Shown here: positions 3,299-38,408 of the stretch, piece by piece
How positions within the stretch are numbered: the stretch's first letter is position 1
How the letters are laid out: every line of letters begins with the position of its first letter
Assembly: GCA_025336725.1 (NCBI GenBank)
Contig: GCA_025336725.1_3647.1
DNA: 64,000 nucleotides
Direction: 5' to 3' (one strand)
Source: Escherichia coli
GTDB lineage: Bacteria; Pseudomonadota; Gammaproteobacteria; Enterobacterales; Enterobacteriaceae
Translations under genes and position numbers: made by a program
The notes under the pieces: model-generated
Seen by the model: only the letters and a program-made list of their open reading frames with translations
Databases searched by the model: none
Told to the model about the DNA's origin: nothing

Positions 3299-3984
3299 TA
3301 ACCCTCCTGTCTAGTTGCGTTTACTGTAATACTTTCACAATAAATAGTTGTGGTGTCCCAATCAGGTCTTACGTCAGGAACATACAGCAAAGTAGCCAGC
3401 CCACCAACTCCGAACTGGTTTTCTTCCCATACTGATCCGAAGCCAAGAGCTGTGGAGTCTCCTTCAAAACCAAAAGCTTGCCCTTGCGATTCTGTAAGAC
3501 GCAAATGACAAGGCAATGGCAGCATATCTAAGATCTGATCGATGGACTGCAATATGTCAAAGCAGGTTTTTCTAATGTTTATGTCAAATCTAAAGTTGTC
3601 ACCTTTCCACGTATCGAAATTATCTCTTCCGAACAATTGTCGCAAGGTTGAGATGACATCTTCACGAGTCCCGCCCCTCGATGCTGCTGCCTGCTGAATA
3701 ATTAGGGTAGCACGAAAATCAGCATCTGAAAGCCCATTCCGAAGAATACCGAGTTGATTACCAACTTCGTCAAGGTATCTTCCGCTGGCATTGTTAAGCA
3801 ATCTTCCTTCAGCTAAGCCTACCAGCATCTTATCAACATTCTCCAACCTTTTAAGGTACACGGTTAAGAATGTGACTAAATTAACCTTCTCAGCCAGAAA
3901 ATCTCCAGGTAGGTAGTCAAGACCTCCCTGAACAAAATCTGGCAGAGTGTGGATGTGGTTGACATCCGACTTAATCTCTGCCAT
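3298..3984 (-). CDS. baseplate protein (P2 gpI / Mu gp48-like, DUF2313-type)
   Basis: 228 aa; central region LENVDKMLVGLAEGRLLNNASGRYLDEVGNQLGI...ATLIIQQAAASRGGTREDV fits the conserved pattern of I-like baseplate proteins; lies directly downstream of a J-like gene as in P2/Mu. Confidence 0.4.
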   Translation of the reverse strand: MAEIKSDVNHIHTLPDFVQGGLDYLPGDFLAEKVNLVTFLTVYLKRLENVDKMLVGLAEGRLLNNASGRYLDEVGNQLGILRNGLSDADFRATLIIQQAAASRGGTREDVISTLRQLFGRDNFDTWKGDNFRFDINIRKTCFDILQSIDQILDMLPLPCHLRLTESQGQAFGFEGDSTALGFGSVWEENQFGVGGLATLLYVPDVRPDWDTTTIYCESITVNATRQEG

Positions 3985-18533: not shown

Positions 18534-19118
18534 TTAGTTAACATCAATAGCACGACCAGACTGGTTGGCAATAGCCTCATCATTGGAGGTAGCAATAACA
18601 CCAGAGTATTCGCGCTCATCTGGAGCAAGCGTCCAGGTATTGCGGTTAATGGTTTGTTCTGCCTCAGTCATCAGCAGATCTTTATCCTGAGTCAACAGAG
18701 AGCCTACAGGGATCGGGTTTTCCATCTCAGGACCAGCATACTGGTTCCACCATGTGGCATCTCCGGTTCTAGGCAATCTGAAGTTGATCAGGTAGTACAG
18801 TTTATTAGCCCACTTAATCCAACCCTCATCATCACAGAGAGAGGTTGTCCCAGAATCAGGCTGTGGGTAGGTGAACTGATCAAGACCTACGAAAGCCAGC
18901 CTTACAATCTCGTTCTCTTTGGTAACAACCTCAAAGAACGCTTGGTATGTTCTAGATCTTCGATCCATGGTAGACTGGAAGTTTATGATGTTTAGCACAT
19001 CCGGCTCTTGTCTTGCCACTTCCATAATCTTGTTATCAAGAACAGTCTTCATGACCTTCTTGCTGAGAAAGTCCATATAAGGGAGCAAACAGCTCGTCAG
19101 CAGCCAGCTCCCTTCCAC
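18534..19118 (-). CDS. hypothetical baseplate-associated protein
   Basis: 194 aa ORF between the spike gene and the fibre cluster; true start may be an internal Met. Confidence 0.35.
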   Translation of the reverse strand: MEGSWLLTSCLLPYMDFLSKKVMKTVLDNKIMEVARQEPDVLNIINFQSTMDRRSRTYQAFFEVVTKENEIVRLAFVGLDQFTYPQPDSGTTSLCDDEGWIKWANKLYYLINFRLPRTGDATWWNQYAGPEMENPIPVGSLLTQDKDLLMTEAEQTINRNTWTLAPDEREYSGVIATSNDEAIANQSGRAIDVN

Positions 19119-19258
19119 GTATTAAACCTCATCCACAAGCGCTGGCGCAGACTTACCTGGTTTGAATCTATCAACTCAAGACCTTTGTCTATCGCCAAAT
19201 CGCCTGTCTGCGGGTCCATCAATATGTCACTATAAAGCGTAGCCATGAAAGCCCTCTA

Positions 19259-21332: not shown

Positions 21333-21878
21333 TTATTTTCCGTTAACTTTGTTGTAGTTCCCCTGCTCAGATGGGACTATGGTGGAAGGTCTTCCATATT
21401 CCTGATAATACCAATCTGCAGCCGATTGGGTAACACCGTTTTCATCTGTCCACATCATGGATTTGTATGGCTGCCACTCTTCTGCAGCATTTGTGGACGC
21501 GGTGTCTGCAAATGCCCCTGTGTCTCTCTTGTTACCTACGTTACTACCATTCTTGCAATCGTTGACAGCCCCTTTTTGCTGGGTCTTGCCGACCTTCTTG
21601 GGGTTGCTGTATACAGTTGCATTAACAACCTTGTTCAAGTAGAATGTGCGGAATTCTGTAAGTTCCACATCAAACACCATTGCAGCACCCTCACCAACAG
21701 ACTTGTTGGCAGAAAGACTGGTTATAATGTAGTTTTCAAGGAGTCTCTCTTCAGTAACTAAAGAAACCAACTGCCGCTTATTAATGATCTCGTCAAAGTT
21801 TCCAGTGCAGCGCCGCAAGTCGCATAGACGCTGCAGGGTTTTTAGAGTCAGTATTCCTGTCAATGTAGTTTTGCTCAT
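21333..21878 (-). CDS. hypothetical structural protein
   Basis: 181 aa ORF; its first 86 nt overlap the upstream ORF in another frame, so either the start is downstream or the two form one frameshifted gene. Confidence 0.35.
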   Translation of the reverse strand: MSKTTLTGILTLKTLQRLCDLRRCTGNFDEIINKRQLVSLVTEERLLENYIITSLSANKSVGEGAAMVFDVELTEFRTFYLNKVVNATVYSNPKKVGKTQQKGAVNDCKNGSNVGNKRDTGAFADTASTNAAEEWQPYKSMMWTDENGVTQSAADWYYQEYGRPSTIVPSEQGNYNKVNGK

Positions 21879-22218
21879 AGATTATATGTGGTGATGTATT
21901 TACCCTACCAGTAAAAGAAAATACACCATCTTTAATTACAGCGTGGTCTGACAGGGTAGATTTATCTTCCACCGCAAACCCAGTCTTATCAACAGAATGT
22001 TTGAAAGAATAGTTCTCAACCTGGTCGAAGATAATGGCAAGATCGTTAGTAAAGTTTTTACCCTTCATCTCCGTATTGCGACCACCATAGTTAAGACCGC
22101 TGACAAACATAGTATACTTTACATCGCTTTCAGTTTGCTGCTCTGCCTTTTCAGCCTTTGGAGATTTAACCTCTTGAGGCTTGTACAGGTCTTTTTCATC
22201 AACTATATTGCTTGGCAT
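21793..22218 (-). CDS. hypothetical structural protein
   Basis: 141 aa ORF; overlaps the following ORF by 86 nt in a different frame. Confidence 0.35.
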   Translation of the reverse strand: MPSNIVDEKDLYKPQEVKSPKAEKAEQQTESDVKYTMFVSGLNYGGRNTEMKGKNFTNDLAIIFDQVENYSFKHSVDKTGFAVEDKSTLSDHAVIKDGVFSFTGRVNTSPHIIYEQNYIDRNTDSKNPAASMRLAALHWKL

Positions 22219-22312: not shown

Positions 22313-22637
22313 TGCACAGTTTATTACCAAAGGTCGGTAGACATGAAGTTGATATCTTTATTGTTCTCCCACTCAAGTTTTGCATCAAATATTTTGTTAA
22401 ACTCGCCCTCATCTATTGAAATCGTGATTTTCCCATCACTGATCTCTAAAGGTAGCATTTCCATAGTTCTTAATTGAGAAGCAAAACCGAGGCCACCCCG
22501 GCAACGGAAAATCCCGCCCCATTAAGGTGTCCAAAGGATTAACAAACCCGTTACCTCAAATGAAAGTATCTTTGCGAATCATATCGCTGATAGCATCCAG
22601 CTGCTGATTTCTTTCACTTAGTGGGTTGTAACGGTCA

Positions 22638-23099
22638 TTAAATAATTCCGGCGCTTAGTATTATACCGATAATGCCCAGCTTACCGAGCAGACCAACTTT
22701 GCCACCAGGTGTCTTGAGGCCACCCCCACCTTTTCCTGCCGGAGCTCCACCACCAGATCCTTCTGTAGTAGCGGCACCAGCTGCTGCTGCTGCTCCAGCT
22801 GCACCCCTTAGAGAGTTAAGGAATTTAAAGGTTTTTACAAGCATGGATGCCATGACAAAACCTTTTGTTAGGGCGTTGACTACCAGCATGATGGCAGCAG
22901 CAAACCCTGCCCATTTAGCATAGCTAAAGGTGTCATGAAGCTCTTCAGAATATTCCTTCGTCTTAGCTGTTATGAATCCCCATTTAATCCCCCATTCAAG
23001 GAAAAACATGCGGATCTTGACTATAGTGTTGTTTAGTTCACCAACTACCCAGTTAAGGCCTCTCACAAACCCGCTAACAAAATCACCAGAGGCATCCAC
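22638..23099 (-). CDS. probable C-terminal fragment of the tape measure protein (hydrophobic, Gly-rich)
   Basis: 153 aa; hydrophobic segments plus GAAGAAAAAGAATTEGSGGGAPAGKGGGG...GIIGIILSAGII, as at tape-measure C-termini; lies downstream of the 415-aa helical ORF in another frame. Confidence 0.35.
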   Translation of the reverse strand: MDASGDFVSGFVRGLNWVVGELNNTIVKIRMFFLEWGIKWGFITAKTKEYSEELHDTFSYAKWAGFAAAIMLVVNALTKGFVMASMLVKTFKFLNSLRGAAGAAAAAGAATTEGSGGGAPAGKGGGGLKTPGGKVGLLGKLGIIGIILSAGII

Positions 23100-23161
23100 A
23101 CAAATTACGGGGAGTCTCGCCAGTGCGAATCAGTGTATAATGAACTCTGTTAATTCATCGC

Positions 23162-23371
23162 TTAACGGGTGAACAGCTTCTGACAGGATAATTCGATGAA
23201 GGTTTTCAGTCTGTTTTCTGCCAATGCGTTAGACTTCTGCATTCTTTCATAACCGGCTGCAGATGCCTCGTTCATATACTTAGCCACATACTTCATGATC
23301 TTGGCTGTCTTAACCTCACCTTTCTTCATCATGTCCATGAACTGATCCATGGACAGTTCAGAAAAGACCAA
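23162..23371 (-). CDS. short ORF between tape-measure fragments (possible frameshifted segment)
   Basis: 69 aa ORF (TTG start; first ATG is internal at MDQFMDMM) between the 415-aa and 153-aa tape-measure-like ORFs. Confidence 0.25.
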   Translation of the reverse strand: MVFSELSMDQFMDMMKKGEVKTAKIMKYVAKYMNEASAAGYERMQKSNALAENRLKTFIELSCQKLFTR

Positions 23372-23414
23372 AAGCCTCTTTGGTGGCTTTGATAAAGGTT
23401 ATGCGGGCAATGCT

Positions 23415-24662
23415 TCAGCAAGTTGTTGCTTCAGTTCTTCGGACATTACCTGTCCTTTCCCGAGCAATTTGCTGGATTGCCATGATACCACGCTGGTATT
23501 TTACCTCATCGGCACCATAAGCAGCAGCATACTGTGAGTATGCAGAAAACAGCTCATGCACTTCCTGATTTGTCATCTGGTTTTTGGCGTTTACCGACAT
23601 CTGGGCGTAACCTTGAAGACCAGATTTGAGATCAAAACCAAGACGCATAGCCTCTTGCTGGACAAACGCAACCTCACTGTTGGCTTTGTTTGGATCTCCA
23701 GTAACAGCAGTAAGAGCAGCACTTGCCCCCTCCATCATGTGACCAGATCTGTTCACAGCAGTAAATCCAGAGAAAGCCGTATACGCAGCTGTTGCATTAA
23801 TAACAGACCTACGTAAGTCTCTCATGGCATCACCAAGTGTAAGCGTTTGGCTGGTGGCGCTTTTAAATCCAGACTGCAGAGCTGACAGGTGGGCGTTAAA
23901 GGTTGACTTTTTCATCTCCCCGCGAGCAAACCTGGACTCTAACTCTGAGTATCCAGGCAAGCTTCCACGGAATCCGGCTCCATACTTGGCAGAAAGTCTT
24001 ATCGCAGAGTTGTAGAGGTGGGTTCTCCTTGCCTCACGATCCGACATAAGCCTATTATCCATGCCAGCTTTACTGTCCCTTCTTAGCTGTCTATGATAAC
24101 GATTCATAGCAGCTGTCTGAGCTTTCACAAGGTTAGGGTCGGAAGCCACACCACCCATATTAGGGTTACCAGGGATATACTTGAAAGATTTGGCATTAGC
24201 CAAAACTCTTGCCTTAGGTGCCTTATAACCGCCGTAAGACACTGGTGTAGATTTGGCAGCCTTTTTGGCCTCTTTAGCTTGCTGCTGGTAGAACTTACGC
24301 ATCCTAGCCATTTCTGGATTTTTAGCGGTAAGATTGCCTACAGCTTGTTTACGTCTCGCGTTCTCCCTACGTTCTATTGCGGCCCTTACTGCAGCCTCTT
24401 TCTTGGCTTGTGCTACGCTCTCCCTGTGCAGTTTAGCATTTGCCTGAGATTGCTGTCTGGCAACCCGCTGCATTGTTTGCTGGGTTTTAACAGCCACTGC
24501 CTGCCATCTACTCATCGGGTTGGCTGAGTTAAAATCCTCGCCAAGTTTCCTGAACTCCCTCCCAATACTGCGAATTTTCTCTACAGCTTTTTTGTAGGAG
24601 GAGTTCTCTATCTCAAAGCCAATCTTGTTGACTGTTGTGGCAACTATTTTGTTTGTAGCCAT
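23415..24662 (-). CDS. tail tape measure protein (N-terminal and central part)
   Basis: 415 aa, Ala/Lys/Arg/Gln-rich helical sequence; canonical position after the chaperone pair and before the baseplate genes; RBS GAGGAAAG before ATG. Confidence 0.45.
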   Translation of the reverse strand: MATNKIVATTVNKIGFEIENSSYKKAVEKIRSIGREFRKLGEDFNSANPMSRWQAVAVKTQQTMQRVARQQSQANAKLHRESVAQAKKEAAVRAAIERRENARRKQAVGNLTAKNPEMARMRKFYQQQAKEAKKAAKSTPVSYGGYKAPKARVLANAKSFKYIPGNPNMGGVASDPNLVKAQTAAMNRYHRQLRRDSKAGMDNRLMSDREARRTHLYNSAIRLSAKYGAGFRGSLPGYSELESRFARGEMKKSTFNAHLSALQSGFKSATSQTLTLGDAMRDLRRSVINATAAYTAFSGFTAVNRSGHMMEGASAALTAVTGDPNKANSEVAFVQQEAMRLGFDLKSGLQGYAQMSVNAKNQMTNQEVHELFSAYSQYAAAYGADEVKYQRGIMAIQQIARERTGNVRRTEATTC

Positions 24663-24716: not shown

Positions 24717-24965
24717 TTATCCTCTCCTGCGCTTAGCTTTCGCAGCAGCTGCGGCAGCCTTCTGCTCCCGCTCCATTTCCCTGTTTTGGACGGTATCTAG
24801 GAATTCTTCGATATCAAGATACTCACAGAGCTTCAGGAAATACGCCATATCTGCAAGATTTAGCGATTCAAAATTTTCCCCTTTGAAATTCTTGAGCACC
24901 CTGCACCAAAGAAAGTCGAACCAGTTAAGTGAACTGTTCTTGGCTGCCCACTCACTGGCCCTCAC
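24717..24965 (-). CDS. possible frameshift-extension ORF of the tail assembly chaperone
   Basis: 82 aa ORF (GTG start) in the +1 frame, overlapping the end of the 157-aa ORF by 13 nt; this frame stays open upstream across the overlap. Confidence 0.3.
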   Translation of the reverse strand: MRASEWAAKNSSLNWFDFLWCRVLKNFKGENFESLNLADMAYFLKLCEYLDIEEFLDTVQNREMEREQKAAAAAAKAKRRRG

Positions 24966-24976
24966 AACAACCTTGC

Positions 24977-25450
24977 TTATTCCTGCTCTTCCGGAGTCTG
25001 ATCCAGATTGTTCACCTGCTGGATCATACCCATCTGCTGTAACATCTCCAGAAGGCTTCCTAAACCGTCTTGTGTGAAAAAACAGCCGTAGTTAACCTCC
25101 AGAACCTTACCTGCCAGCTTAATCATCTCCAGCAGATGCCCTGCAAACACAACATCAGGGTTAAGCTTATCCACACCATCCACGGTAATATCTTCGAACA
25201 AGATTTTAAATAACTCTTCAATAGAGTTATCATCAAGTTCCTGGAACAGGTAAGCTAGGGCTGTAGGAAGGACCTCTGCCATATTCTGACCGCCTGAGAG
25301 AATAGATCCACCGATAGCACCTAGCGGGACAGCCACAATCTTACCGATTTTAGGCATGTTTTTCATTGCTTTCATCGGCCCCCAGTGAGTGATCACAAAG
25401 TTGTGCCCTGCTAAATCAATCTCTGTTGTAGGTCTAAAGTTTATAGCCAT
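24977..25450 (-). CDS. tail assembly chaperone
   Basis: 157 aa, acidic C-terminus; located between tube and tape measure, the conserved chaperone position. Confidence 0.4.
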   Translation of the reverse strand: MAINFRPTTEIDLAGHNFVITHWGPMKAMKNMPKIGKIVAVPLGAIGGSILSGGQNMAEVLPTALAYLFQELDDNSIEELFKILFEDITVDGVDKLNPDVVFAGHLLEMIKLAGKVLEVNYGCFFTQDGLGSLLEMLQQMGMIQQVNNLDQTPEEQE

Positions 25451-25523
25451 TTTATAGCATCCTTATTAGTCATGTTGTGCACCATATTTGTGTATTTTAC
25501 CATGATTATAGCGCATTGTCAAT

Positions 25524-26762
25524 TTAACCTTTCAACCAATCCAAGTATGCAGGATCATTTTTACCTTCATCGCTGTGCCATTCGAAGCGAGAGTTGCCGC
25601 TGTTTTCAAGGATATAGCAGCCTGCATTTTTAGCATTCCACTCTTGTGTTTTCTCAGGATCGTATAAGGACTCGTCCAACCCTAAATGCTTCAGTGTCTC
25701 TTGGATGTTTGACTTCCACCAAGCCTGTCTTGGCATTCTGCCACCACGGTAGCTCCAGAAGCTGGTAGATACCTGATCGTCCTCTGCCAAAATCCAGCCA
25801 TCCTCCTCCTTATAGGACACACCTGTGAAGTAATCCCTGTCAAGGAAGGATTGAACATGATCCATCTTAAACTCTTTTTGGATATGCTTAAACAGCTTAC
25901 TACGCCCACCAGGAACGTTACAGCTTGTTGCATACCTTACCATGTCCCACATAACGAAAGGGGTTACCTTTTGATCTCTGTTTTTCAATACCTTAAAACT
26001 CATACAAGCTACCAGCTCACCGTCAGATGTAAACAGACCCTTCTTCACTTCCTTGGCGGGAGCATACCCTTGAATGTGGTTTTTCTCCATAAAGTCACGG
26101 TAAGTTTTATTGTCCACATCCCTAACTGTGCACTTTCTGGCATAGACGGTCTTCTCGTCTTTGACTCCTAAAGCATTCTTAAGATATCTCTCAATGATAG
26201 GTCTTTTCCGAGCATCCTGCCAATCACAATCCCATATAGACAACATGCGAATACCTTGTTTTTCACAGGCCTTCCTTTTCAGGATGTGGTACCATTTCCC
26301 CTTACTATCCACGGAGTGCCAATAGGCACCATTATATTCCACAGCAAGCTTAAGCTCCGGGATATAAATGTCCAGCTCCATCTTTTTCTTGGAAGGATCT
26401 TTAAAGTTGTCCAGAATCCGCACGTTCTCTTCAATATCTCCGCTATAGACACTTTTAATGAACGTCAGGATCTCTTTTTCACCATTAGACTGATTGCGAC
26501 AGCAACGAGGGCATCCTTGTCCTTTCCCGTAATGGAATTCAGGACGCTGCATGAAGATATTCCCACACTCTTTGTGGCGCATCATCATAGGCGTTGAGGC
26601 GTTCACATAAGAGTCTTCAAAATACTCATAATCCCCACCATGAACTTCTACACATCTCTCAACTATTTCTTGGAAGCTAGGAACTTTTTTCACAGAAACA
26701 GACCTTGCTGCGCAAGTCTTGCACCCTTGCCCAGATAAATGCTTGCTGGGTTTCTGATACAT
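25524..26762 (-). CDS. homing-endonuclease-like protein (Zn-ribbon N-domain plus restriction-endonuclease-like core)
   Basis: 412 aa; N-terminal VHGGDYEYF...C...GQGCPRC zinc-ribbon; then GEKEILTFIKS...LDIYIPELKLAVEYNGAYWHS resembling Vsr/DUF559-type nuclease folds; inserted between tail genes. Confidence 0.45.
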   Translation of the reverse strand: MYQKPSKHLSGQGCKTCAARSVSVKKVPSFQEIVERCVEVHGGDYEYFEDSYVNASTPMMMRHKECGNIFMQRPEFHYGKGQGCPRCCRNQSNGEKEILTFIKSVYSGDIEENVRILDNFKDPSKKKMELDIYIPELKLAVEYNGAYWHSVDSKGKWYHILKRKACEKQGIRMLSIWDCDWQDARKRPIIERYLKNALGVKDEKTVYARKCTVRDVDNKTYRDFMEKNHIQGYAPAKEVKKGLFTSDGELVACMSFKVLKNRDQKVTPFVMWDMVRYATSCNVPGGRSKLFKHIQKEFKMDHVQSFLDRDYFTGVSYKEEDGWILAEDDQVSTSFWSYRGGRMPRQAWWKSNIQETLKHLGLDESLYDPEKTQEWNAKNAGCYILENSGNSRFEWHSDEGKNDPAYLDWLKG

Positions 26763-26849
26763 TATTCTTCCGCACGTTTTGCAATGAATCTCAACCTTAT
26801 CCCAGAGGTCTTGCTTACTACATGGCTATGACCATACTTTTCAGCATTT

Positions 26850-27149
26850 TCAAGGATATCTTTTTAATACCTTTTTGATCCACTCCTCGGTAGTGCACCT
26901 GTTACCACGCTCATGTGGGAATTTCTTACCCTTTCTTGATTTTGCAGATCTCTCAGCTCCACAAACAGGGCATCCTCTTTTTAGATTTATATGGTTATCA
27001 GGTGTCTGGTTGAAGTGGTTACCGCAGGTATTGCAGACTATTTCTACCTTATCTTTGCATGTTTTGTATTCTATAAGAGAATAATCGTACTTATCTCCGT
27101 GAACCCTACGAGCTTTTTCGATAAACCTTTCTGCACTCAATTTAGCCAT
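26850..27149 (-). CDS. Zn-ribbon protein paralogous to the N-domain of the adjacent endonuclease-like gene
   Basis: 99 aa; ARRVHGDKYDYSLIEY...CNTCGNHF...GCPVC parallels the N-terminus of the 25524-26762 product. Confidence 0.45.
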   Translation of the reverse strand: MAKLSAERFIEKARRVHGDKYDYSLIEYKTCKDKVEIVCNTCGNHFNQTPDNHINLKRGCPVCGAERSAKSRKGKKFPHERGNRCTTEEWIKKVLKRYP

Positions 27150-27199
27150 AACTGTCTCCTCCTTTATTGTAGGATACTAAAAACAAACAAATATGTCAA

Positions 27200-27237
27200 A
27201 ACCCTAAAAGCAAAAAAGCCCCACCCGAAGGTGAGGC
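27200..27237 (-). terminator. rho-independent terminator
   Basis: Minus-strand hairpin GCCUCACC-UUCG-GGUGGGGC followed by UUUUUUGCUUUUAGGGUUUUG, immediately after the tail tube gene. Confidence 0.65.
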
Positions 27238-27255
27238 TTATACTAAAGTGTGCCC

Positions 27256-27729
27256 TTAGATAATACCTGCAAGACCTGCGAGGCCAGTGAGAGCACCAGT
27301 GATGTTGTCACGGTTGAGCCATGCATCCAGAATACCGATATCCCAGTCCAGTTGACCTACTTCGGTTCCGTAAGTCAGGTCAGGCTGTTTCTGGATCCAA
27401 CCGATTGTAGAAATACCAGGGCCTTGGCTACCTTCCAGCAGAACCGGGAAGAATACCAGACCAGTAATCGATGCCTGTTTCTGCCAGTCGGAAAGGTAGG
27501 CGTTCCATACAGAAGTGTTCTGCAAAGATACAGTCATAACACCGGATTGGTTACGAGACAGAGCCGCAGACATTTCGCCATCCACACCAACGTGAGGGTA
27601 GATGTTGTCTTCATTTCTTGAAACAACGATCTTGGTGTCAGCAGCGAAGCCAGTGACACGCTGCTGCATCAGATACAGTTTGACCTTTTTAGGGTCATAC
27701 GCATAAGGAGTTAAAATTTGAGTTTCCAT
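27256..27729 (-). CDS. tail tube protein
   Basis: 157 aa; directly downstream of the sheath-like gene; size typical of myoviral tube proteins. Confidence 0.5.
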   Translation of the reverse strand: METQILTPYAYDPKKVKLYLMQQRVTGFAADTKIVVSRNEDNIYPHVGVDGEMSAALSRNQSGVMTVSLQNTSVWNAYLSDWQKQASITGLVFFPVLLEGSQGPGISTIGWIQKQPDLTYGTEVGQLDWDIGILDAWLNRDNITGALTGLAGLAGII

Positions 27730-27739
27730 CTAGTATTCC

Positions 27740-29116
27740 TTATTCAGTCATTGCAACAGCATTGGTGGATTTAGAACCAACTTTGTCCAGAAGAACGTTG
27801 ATCCGGATACGAACGAAGTGCAGAGCGTTGTTATACACCAGTTCTACTTTCACACCTTCCAGAACACGAGCAGCCAACTGGTTGGTCGGGATTTCTGCAC
27901 GTTTTGGAACTGTAATGATCGGGTCGTAGAATACATTGTTGTCTTCGTCAAAACCTGTCAGGATAGCACCGTTCTTAATGCCCGTATTGATCGGGTTGTT
28001 CATCAGAACAGACTTGATAACTGGCAGATCATCATCAGACATCTTCATGCTCAGGCCCATATTAGAGCGGCGGTGCATATATCCGAACATGGACTCTTCA
28101 GATCTAAACTTAATCCAGTGAGCGAAGCGGATAGCATCTGCATACTGACCAGAGGCACATTTACCTTCCCAGAAAGCACCAACACCGTTGATTGTTCTGT
28201 AGAAGTTAATGTTGTTCTCCCAAATCGCCATGCGCTGGGTCAATGTCAGTGATGGTGCAAGCACACCAGGCATCTGTTTTAAGTGTAAGCTGTCTCCGTA
28301 AGATGGATCGTTGGATGCCATAGCACCGATAATACCGCCCTCTGGGAAGTCTTTGTCGGCGCGAGGGTCGTACATACCAACACTGTCATATTTTGCAGCT
28401 TTCAGTTTAGCGGCGATGTTGCTGTCTTTACCAGTTACATCTTCTGAAGTAGAGTAGACATGTAACTTGTAGTTAGCCTGAGCCCACTTAGCACACGCCT
28501 CAATGTCTGTGTGGTCTTCATGACACAGGAAGTACCAATTGTCCCGCTCAGCATTGATCTTGTCAATTACTGTAGAAGGTTTTTCAGCATTGGCGATATT
28601 TTTGATTGTATAGTTACCAGTATGATAACCAACAGTGCAGTCACCAGTGATGGTGAGAACACCTTCAGAAGCCTCTACAGTGATATCGTTCAAGCTATCA
28701 TCTGCTTCAATTTTAGTCTTCATTGACTCTGCAATCTGAGTTGCACCTGTTCCACCAGAAACAGGGACTATCAAGGCAGTATTGTAGTCACCTTTTGCAA
28801 TAGTCATTACGACATCGGTATCAGCTGCAGCAGCAATGCCTTTGAAATCTACAGTGGTTTTTTCTTTGGCTTGTCTGCCGATCATAACATATTGTGGAGG
28901 GAATACACCACCAAAAGCTTTTGCTGCAAACTCATATGCTGCAGAGCCTTGTGCGAAACCATCTTCCACCATCTGGTCCAGCTCAGCATATACGCGAGCT
29001 CGCTCAGTAAAGTTATTGTGGATAGCGATGAACAGGGGAGTTTCGAAACCTACAGTGTCAATAGGCTGGGTTCCGAGGTTAACTGTAACATCTACCACTT
29101 TATCTAAATATGGCAT
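27740..29116 (-). CDS. tail sheath protein
   Basis: 458 aa; paired with a 157-aa tube gene and followed by chaperones and tape measure, the canonical contractile-tail order. Confidence 0.5.
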   Translation of the reverse strand: MPYLDKVVDVTVNLGTQPIDTVGFETPLFIAIHNNFTERARVYAELDQMVEDGFAQGSAAYEFAAKAFGGVFPPQYVMIGRQAKEKTTVDFKGIAAAADTDVVMTIAKGDYNTALIVPVSGGTGATQIAESMKTKIEADDSLNDITVEASEGVLTITGDCTVGYHTGNYTIKNIANAEKPSTVIDKINAERDNWYFLCHEDHTDIEACAKWAQANYKLHVYSTSEDVTGKDSNIAAKLKAAKYDSVGMYDPRADKDFPEGGIIGAMASNDPSYGDSLHLKQMPGVLAPSLTLTQRMAIWENNINFYRTINGVGAFWEGKCASGQYADAIRFAHWIKFRSEESMFGYMHRRSNMGLSMKMSDDDLPVIKSVLMNNPINTGIKNGAILTGFDEDNNVFYDPIITVPKRAEIPTNQLAARVLEGVKVELVYNNALHFVRIRINVLLDKVGSKSTNAVAMTE

Positions 29117-33735: not shown

Positions 33736-34209
33736 TTATTTGTTAGATTCTGCACGTGCACGAGCAAGTGCTTTTGCAACGTTTTCAGCAAGAATTTCTT
33801 CTGCGGATTTTGCAATATCATCCACAACAGGTTCGCCATCATTACCATGTTCAGTGGTGGCAAACTCTTCTTTGGTTTTATGCACCTCTGCTTCCAGCTC
33901 TTCAATTTTTGCTTGAGCTTTCTCCAGCATAGCTACGATAGGTTCGTTAGCTTTTTCCAGCATGAAGTCAACCAGGGTTGCATGATCTTCTTCACCAACA
34001 AAGCTTAAAGCTTGAGCTTTAGCCAGCATTTTAGCTTTTTCAACTTCAACCTGGGCCTTGATGATTTCTTCAGCTTTACTCTGGGTTGCTTTCAGCTCTT
34101 CTACTTGCTTCAGCAGATCCAGATACTCTTTAGTTTTGGTTACGTCCACCGGATTCTCCTCGGTATTTGCGGATTTTGCAACATCATCCACCTCGGTAGT
34201 TTTATCCAC
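33736..34209 (-). CDS. scaffolding protein
   Basis: 157 aa, highly charged and helical (EELKATQSKAEEIIKAQVEVEKAKMLAKAQ...KIEELEAEVHKTKEE); located between portal and capsid genes. Confidence 0.5.
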   Translation of the reverse strand: MDKTTEVDDVAKSANTEENPVDVTKTKEYLDLLKQVEELKATQSKAEEIIKAQVEVEKAKMLAKAQALSFVGEEDHATLVDFMLEKANEPIVAMLEKAQAKIEELEAEVHKTKEEFATTEHGNDGEPVVDDIAKSAEEILAENVAKALARARAESNK

Positions 34210-34229
34210 CTCAGCAGGTTCCTGTCTAC

Positions 34230-34715
34230 TTAACAGATCAGGTTCCCTTCTTTATCGAAGAGATCAGCGGTTACTTGTTCAAAAATCTGTTGTGTTTTTA
34301 ACGAACTGCTCTGATCTACCACGTTAAGCTGCTTGCCTTCTTTTGCAGCTTTATGAATGGTCACGTTATCACAACGCTCTTCCAGCCATGCAATGCAAGA
34401 CTCTGCGTCAGCTTGCGCCCATTCCCAATCAGGATGCTCTTTAGCCCAAGCTTCCTCTTCAATCTCAAAACCAAGCATGTGTGCGAGTGCTTTGGCATCG
34501 TCATACCACATATCGAAGAAACGACGCAGGTATTCTTCAAAACTCAGCTCCACAGTAACTTGGCGAAGTGCCTTAACAATATCGTCTGTTAACTGCTCAG
34601 GCTGAAGATCACTCTTCATCAAAAGAGATACAGGTCTGTTGTTAGCGCTATAGCCTTGCGCCTTATGGCACAGGGCAATCCCCTTCTCTTTAATAGTGAT
34701 TGTTTTTTCAGACAT
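34230..34715 (-). CDS. hypothetical head morphogenesis protein
   Basis: 161 aa ORF in the head module. Confidence 0.35.
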   Translation of the reverse strand: MSEKTITIKEKGIALCHKAQGYSANNRPVSLLMKSDLQPEQLTDDIVKALRQVTVELSFEEYLRRFFDMWYDDAKALAHMLGFEIEEEAWAKEHPDWEWAQADAESCIAWLEERCDNVTIHKAAKEGKQLNVVDQSSSLKTQQIFEQVTADLFDKEGNLIC

Positions 34716-36860: not shown

Positions 36861-38003
36861 TTAGATAAAACGCTTGAACATAGAGGGTGATGAGATTGAT
36901 GGAATCACACAAGGCAGCGCTACCTCCTCTTTCTCCAGGAAATTAATCGCAGAAGCTACACAGTCGGCCCAGTCGTCTTTTCTGTTAAATGTTGATCTTT
37001 CCCCGTTGAATTTTTCAAGTTCAGTCAGAAATGCTTCCAGAGTATCAGGATGAAAACTGGATTTTACAATCCTCACCATCCCTTGTTGGGCAAGATTGGC
37101 AAAAGGTGAGAACCTTGTCAGTTTAGATTTGTTGGAAGGCATTGGGTCTTCTTCAACCCTGAACCCTTCGGCGAGCAAGGATCTGGATGAGGTTAAGAAC
37201 TCACTCTTACCTGCCTGACCAGGGTCCACAGAAAATACGATTATGCAATCATCTCCATCAAACTGCGCCTGTTTTCTGATGATCACATCTCGTTCCCCAG
37301 CCTTTTTACAGAACTTGCCTTCCAGACCTGTGGAATACCTCCCGTCATCCACGTTCTCAGGACAATAGTCCCCAGATAGGTAATAAAAGCCGTCGCTATC
37401 TTTACTTACCTTAACACTGGCGGTAAAGTCAGGAAATTTATTACCGGAAGTTCTCTCGGTTCCTGCCTTATCCCATGCCCTGCAAGATACTGATCCAAGA
37501 GGTACTCTATCGGCATCACGAAGGAAAGATCTTTGGAAATAGTTTGCACCCTCAGGTTTGGCAAACCAGTTGCCATGAAGAAGCTGGGCTTTTTCCAGCT
37601 CTGGCAGACCTTCAAGGAAAGCAAGGTATTCTGGGTTGTCTCTCAGGCATACAGGATTATCGAAAATTGTTGCGCCTATAAACGAGAATGACAACGGTCT
37701 TGGCTTGATTTCCACACCTAGTCCATTGACCGTAGTGTATTTCTCTATTAACTCCTCTTTAGAGTCTCCCCAGATAAACTCACCGTCGCGTCGGATAAAA
37801 TATCTTTTCTTACCACATTTCTCCGGATCTGGATACCCTTCATCGTCCAACCACCACCTAACCAGTTTGGCAAGCATGTGTTCTGAGTCGGGGTTACAAC
37901 TGATAACCATTCTTGATGGATACTTTGACTGAGATCGCAGACGAGACATCAAATAGTCTATCTGCTCCCATTCGAATTGCGTGCCTTCATCGAAGCAAAC
38001 CAT
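36861..38003 (-). CDS. terminase large subunit, C-terminal portion (Walker B plus nuclease domain)
   Basis: 380 aa; starts ...MVCFDEGTQF (hydrophobic run plus DE = Walker B). In the same reading frame as the upstream 125-aa ORF, separated only by TAA at 38031-38033. Confidence 0.6.
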   Translation of the reverse strand: MVCFDEGTQFEWEQIDYLMSRLRSQSKYPSRMVISCNPDSEHMLAKLVRWWLDDEGYPDPEKCGKKRYFIRRDGEFIWGDSKEELIEKYTTVNGLGVEIKPRPLSFSFIGATIFDNPVCLRDNPEYLAFLEGLPELEKAQLLHGNWFAKPEGANYFQRSFLRDADRVPLGSVSCRAWDKAGTERTSGNKFPDFTASVKVSKDSDGFYYLSGDYCPENVDDGRYSTGLEGKFCKKAGERDVIIRKQAQFDGDDCIIVFSVDPGQAGKSEFLTSSRSLLAEGFRVEEDPMPSNKSKLTRFSPFANLAQQGMVRIVKSSFHPDTLEAFLTELEKFNGERSTFNRKDDWADCVASAINFLEKEEVALPCVIPSISSPSMFKRFI

Positions 38004-38030: not shown

Positions 38031-38408
38031 TTATCTTGGACATACTCCATGTGGCAGTATTTTACAACGGCCTCCTTTTTTGCTCCTGTCCCACTTGCCA
38101 GTGCTCGGATCAAACCGTGGAAAAATAAACTTATGATCCTTCTCTCTGAACTTTGGTTTAATGTTTTCAGGCAGATCACTGTAAATAGCTACTGCTTTAG
38201 GCCATAGCCCACCCTCACCTTCCAACTGTGGAGTTGTTCTTCGGAACATAACCACAGAGCTGTGTGGGTCATCAATAATTTTAAGTGGCATTAGCTGCAA
38301 GAGGAACGACTTGCCAGAACCGGCTGCACCTCCGATCACCAAAATATCTGCATCGTTCTCAAGGATCATCTTCTGCTTTTCAGAACACGGTCCGTAAATC
38401 TTAGACAT
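38031..38408 (-). CDS. terminase large subunit, N-terminal ATPase portion (Walker A)
   Basis: 125 aa; Walker A VIGGAAGSGKSF; ends at an in-frame TAA 27 nt before the Walker-B ORF. Confidence 0.6.
   Translation of the reverse strand: MSKIYGPCSEKQKMILENDADILVIGGAAGSGKSFLLQLMPLKIIDDPHSSVVMFRRTTPQLEGEGGLWPKAVAIYSDLPENIKPKFREKDHKFIFPRFDPSTGKWDRSKKGGRCKILPHGVCPR

Follow-up and report, generated by a model that had tools for sequence, protein, structure and literature searches.

A likely Hef-like homing endonuclease gene, most probably split by sequencing or assembly error, in the tail tube-chaperone spacer of an rV5/FV3-like coliphage

The locus described here lies in a 64,000-nt stretch of DNA (the window) and is that of a Vequintavirus, an rV5/FV3-like coliphage. 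Between the tail tube gene on the upstream side (27256..27729, minus strand; PF11681, phrog_280) and the tail assembly chaperone gene on the downstream side (24977..25450, minus strand; PF21822 at E = 1e-23, phrog_3840) were found two open reading frames (ORFs), also on the minus strand, of 99 aa (26850..27149) and 412 aa (25524..26762), which the deposit, a draft E. coli contig at NCBI, annotates as two hypothetical proteins, N5V81_21785 and N5V81_21780, respectively. The sheath gene lies farther upstream and the tape measure gene farther downstream. An earlier note on this DNA had described the two ORFs exactly as they are present, inside the sheath-tube-chaperone-tape-measure block, and had read them as paralogous genes sharing a zinc ribbon, the shorter perhaps a decayed duplicate. 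Our analysis confirmed the ORFs, their location and the shared ribbon, the last by a BLASTP alignment of the 99-aa and 412-aa ORFs over the zinc-ribbon module (19 of 59 residues identical, E = 5e-9); neither the paralogy nor the duplicate held up.

Once two 1-nt indels are corrected, the interval 25524..27149 (minus strand) reads as a single Hef-like homing endonuclease gene of 541 codons. The reading frame of the two ORFs is identical, and against the phrog_559 profile the 99-aa ORF matches positions 121-200 and the 412-aa ORF positions 224-603 (E = 1.3e-88), coordinates that are collinear and make them consecutive parts of one family profile. HMD-6 and JEP1, the closest phages, carry one unbroken ORF (541 and 540 aa) over the exact same span, and A147 and PDX carry single ORFs of 611 and 616 aa. 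A tblastn search of the window with the HMD-6 protein aligned all of residues 1-541 within a single frame (94.8% identity), and the intact protein as query revealed no second gene copy in the whole window. In the cluster formed at 90% identity, 16 of 17 members are full length, with member lengths of 540, 541 and 611 aa, and the split forms are singletons, both from the NCBI tags N5V81_21780/21785. The JEP1 protein, a 96% identical orthologue, is named "Hef-like homing endonuclease" in UniRef.

The intact 541-aa protein consists of three zinc ribbons, a Vsr-like nuclease and a Mom-like GNAT domain of putative role. The ribbons are encoded on the minus strand at 26955..27137 (aa 5-65; HGDKYDYS...CNTC...CPVC), 26709..26894 (aa 86-147; CKTC...CKTC) and 26499..26678 (aa 158-217; HGGDYEY...HKEC...CPRC), with a ligand pattern of CxxC/CxxC in the tandem repeats that becomes HxxC/CxxC in the third; the second repeat is the one broken by both indels. 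Matches to DUF723 and DUF4379, together with the tandem CxxC...CxxC pairs, place the repeats among the CapR/DUF723/DUF4379 modules, the Pfam DUF723 score being 22.0 bits for the 99-aa ORF (cutoff 20.9) and 33.9 bits for the PDX orthologue. Pfam coverage of the protein comprises these ribbons and a sub-threshold match to MTES_1575. Barth et al. 2023 (PMC10448857) describe DUF723 and DUF4379 as zinc fingers that bind DNA and recur as modules within the homing endonuclease genes of phages, and the three tandem ribbons here probably act as modular, sequence-specific DNA-binding domains. Aligned with the orthologues, the short ORF is the N-terminus of the same gene, consisting of ribbon 1 and the first helix of ribbon 2, and the 412-aa ORF is called from internal Met129 of the intact protein, a start that falls in the middle of ribbon 2 and leaves it with the second CxxC knuckle of that ribbon only. 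By the same alignment, the similarity between the two ORFs is that of a tandem DNA-binding module repeated within one protein.

The indels were located by alignment with HMD-6 and JEP1. An additional T at 26852..26853 (minus strand; CC-TGA to CCTTGA), where all relatives carry a single T, creates the TGA stop that ends the 99-aa ORF. At a distance of 51 nt, still within the second of the three ribbons, one G is missing from a GGG run at 26801..26803 (minus strand; TGGGG to TGGG; HMD-6 has GGGG and JEP1 GGAG), which restores the original frame. The +1 frame of the stretch between them (26802..26851, minus strand) encodes the homologous peptide ENAEKYGHSHVVSKTSG, which in the relatives is ENAEKYDYSHVVYKTSG, and in-frame homologous coding resumes at about 26801, upstream of the called start of the 412-aa ORF.

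Several explanations of the divided gene were weighed. That the ORFs are two independent paralogs, one a decayed zinc-ribbon duplicate and the other a longer zinc-ribbon-nuclease gene, would accord with the 59-aa module they have in common and with their annotation as separate proteins; we rejected this very improbable reading because the pair is collinear with the intact orthologues, and it is also at odds with the shared frame and contiguous profile positions, with the one ORF of all relatives, with a longer ORF that opens inside a zinc ribbon, and with a similarity that is an internal repeat present in three to four copies in every full-length family member. Programmed recoding, in which a bypass or double frameshift over the 51-nt segment (compare T4 gene 60) would yield the full-length protein, might be suggested by an interruption of about 50 nt with identical frames on both sides and a stop codon after the last in-frame sense codon. 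It is scarcely credible here, where the 51 nt are no inserted gap and code in the +1 frame for the intact protein's own peptide, take-off and landing codons do not match (CCT recurs out of frame only, followed by a stop), and the relatives have a plain ORF; with no in-frame landing codon to match, a bypass element of the T4 gene 60 type was dropped as a candidate. It is conceivable, though in our judgement unlikely, that the gene is a genuine pseudogene, which lost its function through a +1 frameshift followed by a -1 frameshift in ribbon 2 at the degeneration stage of the homing life cycle, leaving a 99-aa N-terminal stub and possibly a re-initiated 412-aa product that lacks 1.5 DNA-binding modules. 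Homing endonuclease genes commonly decay after fixation, and 5 of the 17 codons between the indels are changed, compared with about 50 of 524 elsewhere in the gene. The 5 substitutions of this 51-nt stretch include 3 that change residues, two of them at conserved tyrosines (Y107, Y in 81 of 83 sequences, and Y112, Y in 72 of 83), and the residue changes are shared by 0 of 14 other cluster members. Against decay stands the condition of the contig as a whole, in which the tape measure gene (22324..24662) passes through frames -3/-1/-3/-1/-2 in at least four pieces and the genes for the tube initiator, the baseplate and head decoration are likewise broken by indels, damage to essential genes that a viable lytic phage could not tolerate. 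Two of the tape measure pieces are N5V81_21755/21765 of the same NCBI deposit; in the tape measure cluster (448 members), the 13 other near-full-length members among those listed measure 777-779 aa. Frame-changing indels number 47 in the 38.4 kb aligned to HMD-6, so that about two would be expected per 1.6 kb and two were observed in the endonuclease gene. Clusters of substitutions beside indels are found in the broken essential genes too, and the split is a singleton among the 17 cluster members. Outside the 17 shifted codons, the lineage of the window has accumulated about 38 synonymous and 12 mostly conservative non-synonymous codon changes, a low ratio that indicates purifying selection on the gene until very recently. 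Because frame-breaking indels occur contig-wide, essential genes included, an error of sequencing or assembly, as opposed to a pseudogene of biological origin, is the most likely source of the split. The entries N5V81_21780 and N5V81_21785 should be joined into one, or else marked as a Hef-like homing endonuclease with frameshifts, and the contig should be treated as prone to indel errors.

The nuclease domain (26175..26492, minus strand; aa ~220-325) is of the EDxHD, or Vsr-like, type. It has the Vsr-like fold (a diverged PD-(D/E)xK nuclease), and its composite motif E...D...x(N/H)...H...D is complete in the window, with catalytic positions E224, D260, N273, H278 and D309 in intact numbering (E95, D131, N144, H149 and D180 of the 412-aa ORF). 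Across 83 sequences, E224, D260 and H278 are invariant, position 273 holds N (64 sequences), D (17) or H (2), and position 309 is acidic in 79 sequences (43 E, 36 D). The family profile matched I-Bth0305I (3r3p) at E = 1.1e-5, aligning D260 and H278 with the mutated D196 and H213 of that enzyme; a single-sequence phmmer search of the PDB reached 3r3p only at E = 0.12, so the family profile was needed for the match. The NCBIfam search returned no meaningful match, and no HNH profile of Pfam or NCBIfam matched at E <= 1. The PHROG label "HNH endonuclease" for phrog_559 was rejected, as the protein has no beta-beta-alpha-metal HNH motif and the nuclease domain folds Vsr-like.

Comparison with relatives lacking the insert, which the earlier note had proposed, delimits an insert of ~1.65 kb at 25546..27193 (window, HMD-6, A147 and PDX aligned with FV3), where the empty-site relatives have about 6 nt (AACGTG). 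The last 7 codons and the stop of the endonuclease gene (25524..25545, minus strand) lie outside it and are 20/22 identical to sequence kept in the empty-site phages. Counting as carriers those records that hold at least 80% of the query, 5 of the 123 related phage records have the insert; in each of the seven empty-site genomes that were inspected, the spacer is 162 nt long. Homologues in other phages were found at this very tube-chaperone site (68% identity) and between nrdD and nrdG (55% identity); presence or absence at a fixed site, with other sites occupied elsewhere, is the distribution of a mobile element. The carriers fall into two allele groups that are only ~83% identical in the endonuclease, compared with 96-98.5% in the flanking genes. 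These results bear out what the note had supposed, a free-standing homing endonuclease insertion into an otherwise conserved block, with a Vsr-like core whose motif, LDIYIPELKLAVEYNGAYWHS, is found in the 412-aa ORF. The tube-chaperone spacer of the Vequintavirinae is hereby documented as a recurrent, probable homing site with two diverged alleles, of 3 and 4 zinc ribbons.

Also found at the locus were several predicted regulatory signals. An intrinsic terminator after the tube gene (27206..27239, minus strand; 10-bp stem and T tract) is common to the empty-site phages and is annotated in phage Gotham. Ahead of the endonuclease gene, a promoter-like site and ribosome-binding site (27156..27199, minus strand) match the consensus, which is the extent of the assignment: TTGACA at 27199-27194 straddles the insert junction, TATCCT follows at 27176-27171, and the ribosome-binding site AAGGAGGAG at 27164-27156 ends 6 nt before the ATG. 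Beginning 2 nt past the endonuclease stop codon is a predicted strong sigma-70-like promoter for the chaperone and tape measure genes (25494..25522, minus strand; TTGACA-17-TAAAAT with TG, 11/12), and phage Gotham has a promoter annotated at the same place.

Taken together, it seems likely that the tube-terminator/chaperone-promoter spacer holds one free-standing, Hef-like homing endonuclease gene of the EDxHD/Vsr-like kind, split in this deposit most likely by sequencing or assembly error. Family membership and distribution suggest a homing mechanism in which, during mixed infection, the enzyme would cut an allele that lacks the insert, within the tube-chaperone spacer or close to it, and recombinational repair from the endonuclease-carrying genome would then copy the gene into the cut allele. 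The Vsr-like nuclease, with its five EDxHD catalytic positions, would be the part that cleaves the endonuclease-less allele, and its cleavage target may span the insertion point. No fixed nucleotide differences between carrying (n=5) and empty (n=7) genomes were found in the flanking chaperone, tube and sheath genes, so the immunity polymorphism usual for free-standing homing endonuclease genes was not found; 44 "associated" columns at 27101-27193 reflect only the comparison of non-homologous insert with spacer.

The gene has close counterparts in known systems. Like the T5orf172/CapR homing endonuclease genes, it has repeated CapR/DUF723/DUF4379 modules in variable number (Barth et al. 2023), here 3 or 4 among alleles, and like these and the T4 seg and mob genes it lies intergenically between conserved genes and is patchily distributed among close relatives; its catalytic domain differs from theirs in being Vsr-like, not T5orf172, GIY-YIG or HNH. 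The EDxHD prototype I-Bth0305I, whose gene lies within a recA group I intron, is a 266-aa protein with N-terminal NUMOD/HTH DNA-binding motifs (Taylor et al. 2011), whereas the protein here is free-standing, relies on 3-4 zinc-ribbon modules and has a Mom-like domain of ~215 aa in addition. Hef-like genes are annotated elsewhere in Campylobacter, Dickeya LIMEstone, Bacillus AR9 and PA5oct-like phages, and those of LIMEstone adjoin tail tube and baseplate genes; the gene here is likewise free-standing, intergenic and beside conserved structural genes, and differs in being split by two indels in the window. The Hef of phage U5 is said to have been described by Sandegren et al. 2005. According to a review, it cleaves nrdB (PMC2988022). 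Hef-type phage endonucleases were placed with I-Bth0305I in the Vsr-like family (Taylor et al. 2011, PMC3239194), and it is on that placement and on UniRef and GenBank annotations that the Hef link made here rests. The Hef-like family is already known, and in this respect the finding is an ordinary one.

The C-terminal domain of ~215 aa, which had been missed in the earlier note, is a Mom-like GNAT-fold domain (25527..26174, minus strand; aa ~326-541). Its best structural match in Foldseek was phage Mu Mom (PDB 8bv8; E = 8e-6, TM 0.61 on target, 207 columns), and a profile-sequence comparison with Mom gave E = 2.7e-5; the likeness spans essentially the whole Mom chain, including the Mom-specific extension of the GNAT fold. 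In Mom, a tRNA-dependent DNA adenine aminoacyl/carbamoylmethyl transferase, R111, S124, D149 and R151 are essential, as are H58, Y59 and Y159 (PMC13219725). Mapping with hhalign assigned H58 to H358, R111 to R405 and Y159 to Y446, each conserved in 83 of 83 sequences, D149 to D437 (77 of 83), S124 to S417 (S in 54, G in 28) and Y59 to I359. The equivalent of R151 is ambiguous, position 439 being R or D (D439 here) and R438 being present in 61 of 83. Equivalents of H58, R111, S124, D149 and Y159 are for the most part conserved, but identity to Mom is only ~14-16%, R151 has no clearly conserved counterpart, a third of the family has G in place of S124, and, in contrast to Mom, the domain forms part of a protein with a nuclease and zinc ribbons. 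A model of homing alone gives no account of why the domain keeps most residues essential in Mom. Widely annotated as "Hef-like homing endonuclease", the domain was found at 754 places across 295 phage records, single genomes having as many as 10-11 copies. Fusions of Mom domains with restriction-endonuclease-fold nucleases, and "five momylating enzymes" in PA5oct, have been described previously (Iyer et al. 2021, PMC7824862).

These fusions, the likeness over nearly all of Mom and the retention of H358, R405, D437, Y446 and, in part, S417 raise the question of whether homing is the protein's primary function at all, or whether it is a modification-restriction module in one polypeptide, of the kind that Iyer et al. 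2021 suggested for jumbo phages, in which a Mom-type adenine-modifying domain would protect the phage's own DNA while the nuclease attacks that of the host or of competitors; self-modification could also account for the missing immunity polymorphisms in the flanks. We consider this doubtful, since presence or absence of the gene in nearly identical phages at a single, precise intergenic position, repeated occupation of classic homing sites such as nrdD/nrdG, many diverged copies within single genomes, a variable number of sequence-reading zinc-ribbon modules and the reported cleavage of nrdB by the U5 enzyme amount to the behavior of a selfish element. The module and the homing endonuclease are not mutually exclusive. 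It could be, though we think it rather improbable, that Hef-like enzymes are bifunctional, their Mom-like domain being an active, possibly aminoacyl-tRNA-dependent adenine modifier that marks the element's own genome at or near the target, which would explain both the conservation of key Mom residues and the lack of immunity polymorphisms between carrying and empty flanks. If true, this would provide self-immunity independent of target-site polymorphism and make these genes mobile, single-polypeptide, restriction-modification-like homing elements. Iyer et al. 2021 had already pointed out the Mom-nuclease fusion; the link to homing immunity that may follow from it is proposed here. The many members of the Hef-like family combine a Vsr-like nuclease with a Mom-like domain in which most residues reported as important for Mom activity are kept.

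A Vequintavirus-type tail module lies on the minus strand of the window, in the order sheath (27740-29116, phrog_205), tube (27256-27729, PF11681), a 99-aa ORF (26850-27149), a 412-aa ORF (25524-26762), tail assembly chaperone (24977-25450, PF21822), an 82-aa ORF (24717-24965) and tape measure. Exact-sequence look-up identified the 99-aa and 412-aa ORFs as MCT7477436.1/N5V81_21785 and MCT7477435.1/N5V81_21780. The earlier note described these as paralogous genes with a common zinc ribbon; the shared module was recovered in both (59 residues, 19/59 identical, E = 5e-9), as was the reported nuclease motif, ELDIYIPELKLAVEYNGAYWHS, in the 412-aa ORF. The 82-aa ORF (phrog_10409, unknown function) is 98-100% conserved across all relatives and sits between chaperone and tape measure, the usual place of tail-chaperone frameshift extensions.

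The paralogy itself was not borne out: by sequence comparison, the two ORFs are one gene. They share a reading frame, with three in-frame stops in the translated gap, and match consecutive parts of the PHROG family 559 profile (positions 121-200 for the 99-aa ORF, 224-603 for the 412-aa ORF). HMD-6 and JEP1, the closest phage genomes at 96% nucleotide identity, each have exactly the same span annotated as a single CDS, of 541 and 540 aa respectively. In a three-way alignment with these phages, the window's copy of the gene differs in length at only two places, both given on the minus strand. One is an additional T at 26852/26853 (CC-TGA to CCTTGA), producing the stop that ends the 99-aa ORF; the other, 51 nt further downstream, is the loss of a G at 26801-26803 (TGGGG to TGGG), which restores the frame. 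Taken in the +1 frame, the 17 codons between them still encode ENAEKYGHSHVVSKTSG, versus ENAEKYDYSHVVYKTSG in the relatives, and the 412-aa ORF starts at an internal methionine, Met129, midway through zinc ribbon 2. Given this evidence from frame, profile, relatives and indels, the similarity between the ORFs is that of an internal tandem repeat of one protein. The window allele has three zinc ribbons, and the alleles of phages A147 and A135 (611 aa) and PDX (616 aa) have four.

The gene is of a known kind, a Hef-like homing endonuclease of the EDxHD family that is intact in published phage genomes. An AlphaFold model of an intact 541-aa orthologue, built from an 83-sequence alignment, had a mean pLDDT of 92. 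Three zinc ribbons (residues 5-217) match Pfam DUF723/DUF4379, which together with CapR are repeated zinc-finger DNA-binding modules in phage homing endonuclease genes (Barth et al., 2023, PMC10448857). They are followed by a Vsr-like nuclease (residues ~220-325), for which the family profile had one match among PDB sequences, the I-Bth0305I catalytic domain (3r3p, E = 1.1e-5); D260 and H278 align to both positions mutated in that crystal form. Among the EDxHD positions, E224, D260 and H278 are invariant in 83/83 sequences, N273 is N, D or H, and position 309 is D or E. "Bacteriophage Hef type homing endonucleases" were earlier placed in the Vsr-like family (Taylor et al., 2011, PMC3239194), and the JEP1 orthologue is named "Hef-like homing endonuclease" in UniRef. 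The PHROG label for family 559, "HNH endonuclease", is unsupported, the nuclease domain being Vsr-like.

Residues ~326-541 form a Mom-like, GNAT-fold domain. The functionally important Mom residues H58, R111, D149 and Y159 correspond to H358, R405, D437 and Y446, all invariant or nearly so, and S124 corresponds to S417 (S in 54 sequences, G in 28); Mom R151 had no clear equivalent. In jumbo phages, Mom domains fused to restriction-endonuclease-fold nucleases have been read as modification-restriction modules (Iyer et al., 2021, PMC7824862). In GenBank, the same genes of PA5oct-like, AR9 and Campylobacter phages are annotated as "Hef-like homing endonuclease", and a single genome can have as many as 10-11 copies.

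The proposal that the gene is a free-standing homing endonuclease insertion fared better, being supported by patchy presence, an exact insertion site, allele divergence and homologues at homing sites, with target, cleavage and homing putative. Only 5 of 123 related phage records contained 80% or more of a query that covered the locus; the other records among the matches listed aligned with the two flanks only. A 162-nt tube-chaperone spacer was present in all seven empty-site phages fetched (FV3, YP-6, S127 BCL3, Gotham, typing phage 14, WalterGehring and AlexBoehm). Alignment to the empty site delimits ~1.65 kb of extra DNA (25546-27193) between the tube-gene terminator upstream (27206-27239) and the strong promoter of the chaperone operon downstream (25494-25522), both common to empty sites, and the insert brings its own good ribosome-binding site, AAGGAGGAG (27156-27164). 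The nuclease/GNAT part is only ~83% identical between the three-ribbon and four-ribbon allele groups; for the neighbouring chaperone and tube genes, identity is 96-98.5% across all genomes, whether or not they carry the insert. At the same tube-chaperone site, a more distant phage has a homologue with 68% identity; another homologue, 55% identical, is found between nrdD and nrdG, which is a classic hot spot for homing. Two further features were observed in these phages. The more distant, Vequintavirinae-like phage (L014) has an extra ORF of 108 aa (3578-3904), without a Pfam match, between its tube and Hef-like genes. The nrdD-nrdG region of the other (L015, 589-3877) is densely invaded by multiple introns or homing endonuclease genes: directly upstream of the Hef-like gene, nrdD is broken into at least five called pieces, and a second DUF723/MUG113 ORF precedes nrdG.

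No position in ~4 kb of flanks was found to separate the alleles of endonuclease-carrying genomes completely from those of empty ones; an active enzyme would probably have a cleavage site that straddles the point of insertion, or else immunity arises another way. The last seven codons and stop of the gene (..DWLKG-stop, 25524-25545) match sequence retained in empty-site phages (in FV3, L005, ~2125-2146) at 20 of 22 nt. Because of this match and a similar DWLKG close to the C-terminal end of the nrdD-nrdG homologue, the empty alleles may be deletion scars descended from endonuclease-carrying ancestors; alternatively, the match could be an overlap with the region upstream of the chaperone promoter.

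It seems probable that the split is a sequencing artefact. Both ORFs come from a 122,420-bp contig of an NCBI E. coli draft assembly and are singletons; the other 15 members listed of their 90% cluster are 540, 541 or 611 aa. Many frame-breaking indels occur across the same contig relative to HMD-6, in the tape measure (22324-24662, frames -3/-1/-3/-1/-2; deposited as fragments N5V81_21755 and N5V81_21765), the tube initiator (21333-22218), a baseplate protein gene (18534-19246), a head decoration gene (33736-34715) and the N-terminal part of the terminase (38031-38408), which has its own +1/-1 pair. The 13 other near-full-length tape measures listed from a 448-member cluster are 777-779 aa. 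Counting only events with well-matched flanks, we found 47 frame-changing indels in 38.4 kb aligned to HMD-6, or ~1 per 0.8 kb, several at homopolymers or CCWGG/GATC motifs, and the two events in the 1.6-kb endonuclease gene are the number predicted from this background. To our knowledge the tape measure is indispensable to a lytic myovirus, so the indels in it and in the other structural genes are sequence errors, and the endonuclease split is most economically explained as the same kind of error. Genuine inactivation, leaving a true pseudogene, is rather unlikely. Three replacements within the 17 shifted codons, two at conserved tyrosines, are absent from every other cluster member and would fit real local decay, but essential genes with indels have similar substitution clusters beside them. 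Outside the shifted segment, codon changes of the window lineage (~38 synonymous versus 12 mostly conservative replacements) indicate purifying selection on the gene until very recently.

The contig (N5V81_*) resembles an unpolished, error-prone assembly of a lytic phage within an E. coli draft genome. In HMD-6 the large terminase is called as two CDS with 348 nt between them (L006, 2823-3170), ~318 nt more than the ~34 nt between the corresponding parts in the window (37950-37983), possibly a small intron-like or other insert. Eighteen "Campylobacter phage" records (MG0656xx, including A147, L003), UNVERIFIED and without annotation, share ~97% identity with E. coli Vequintaviruses at the locus and are probably mislabelled or contaminant coliphages.
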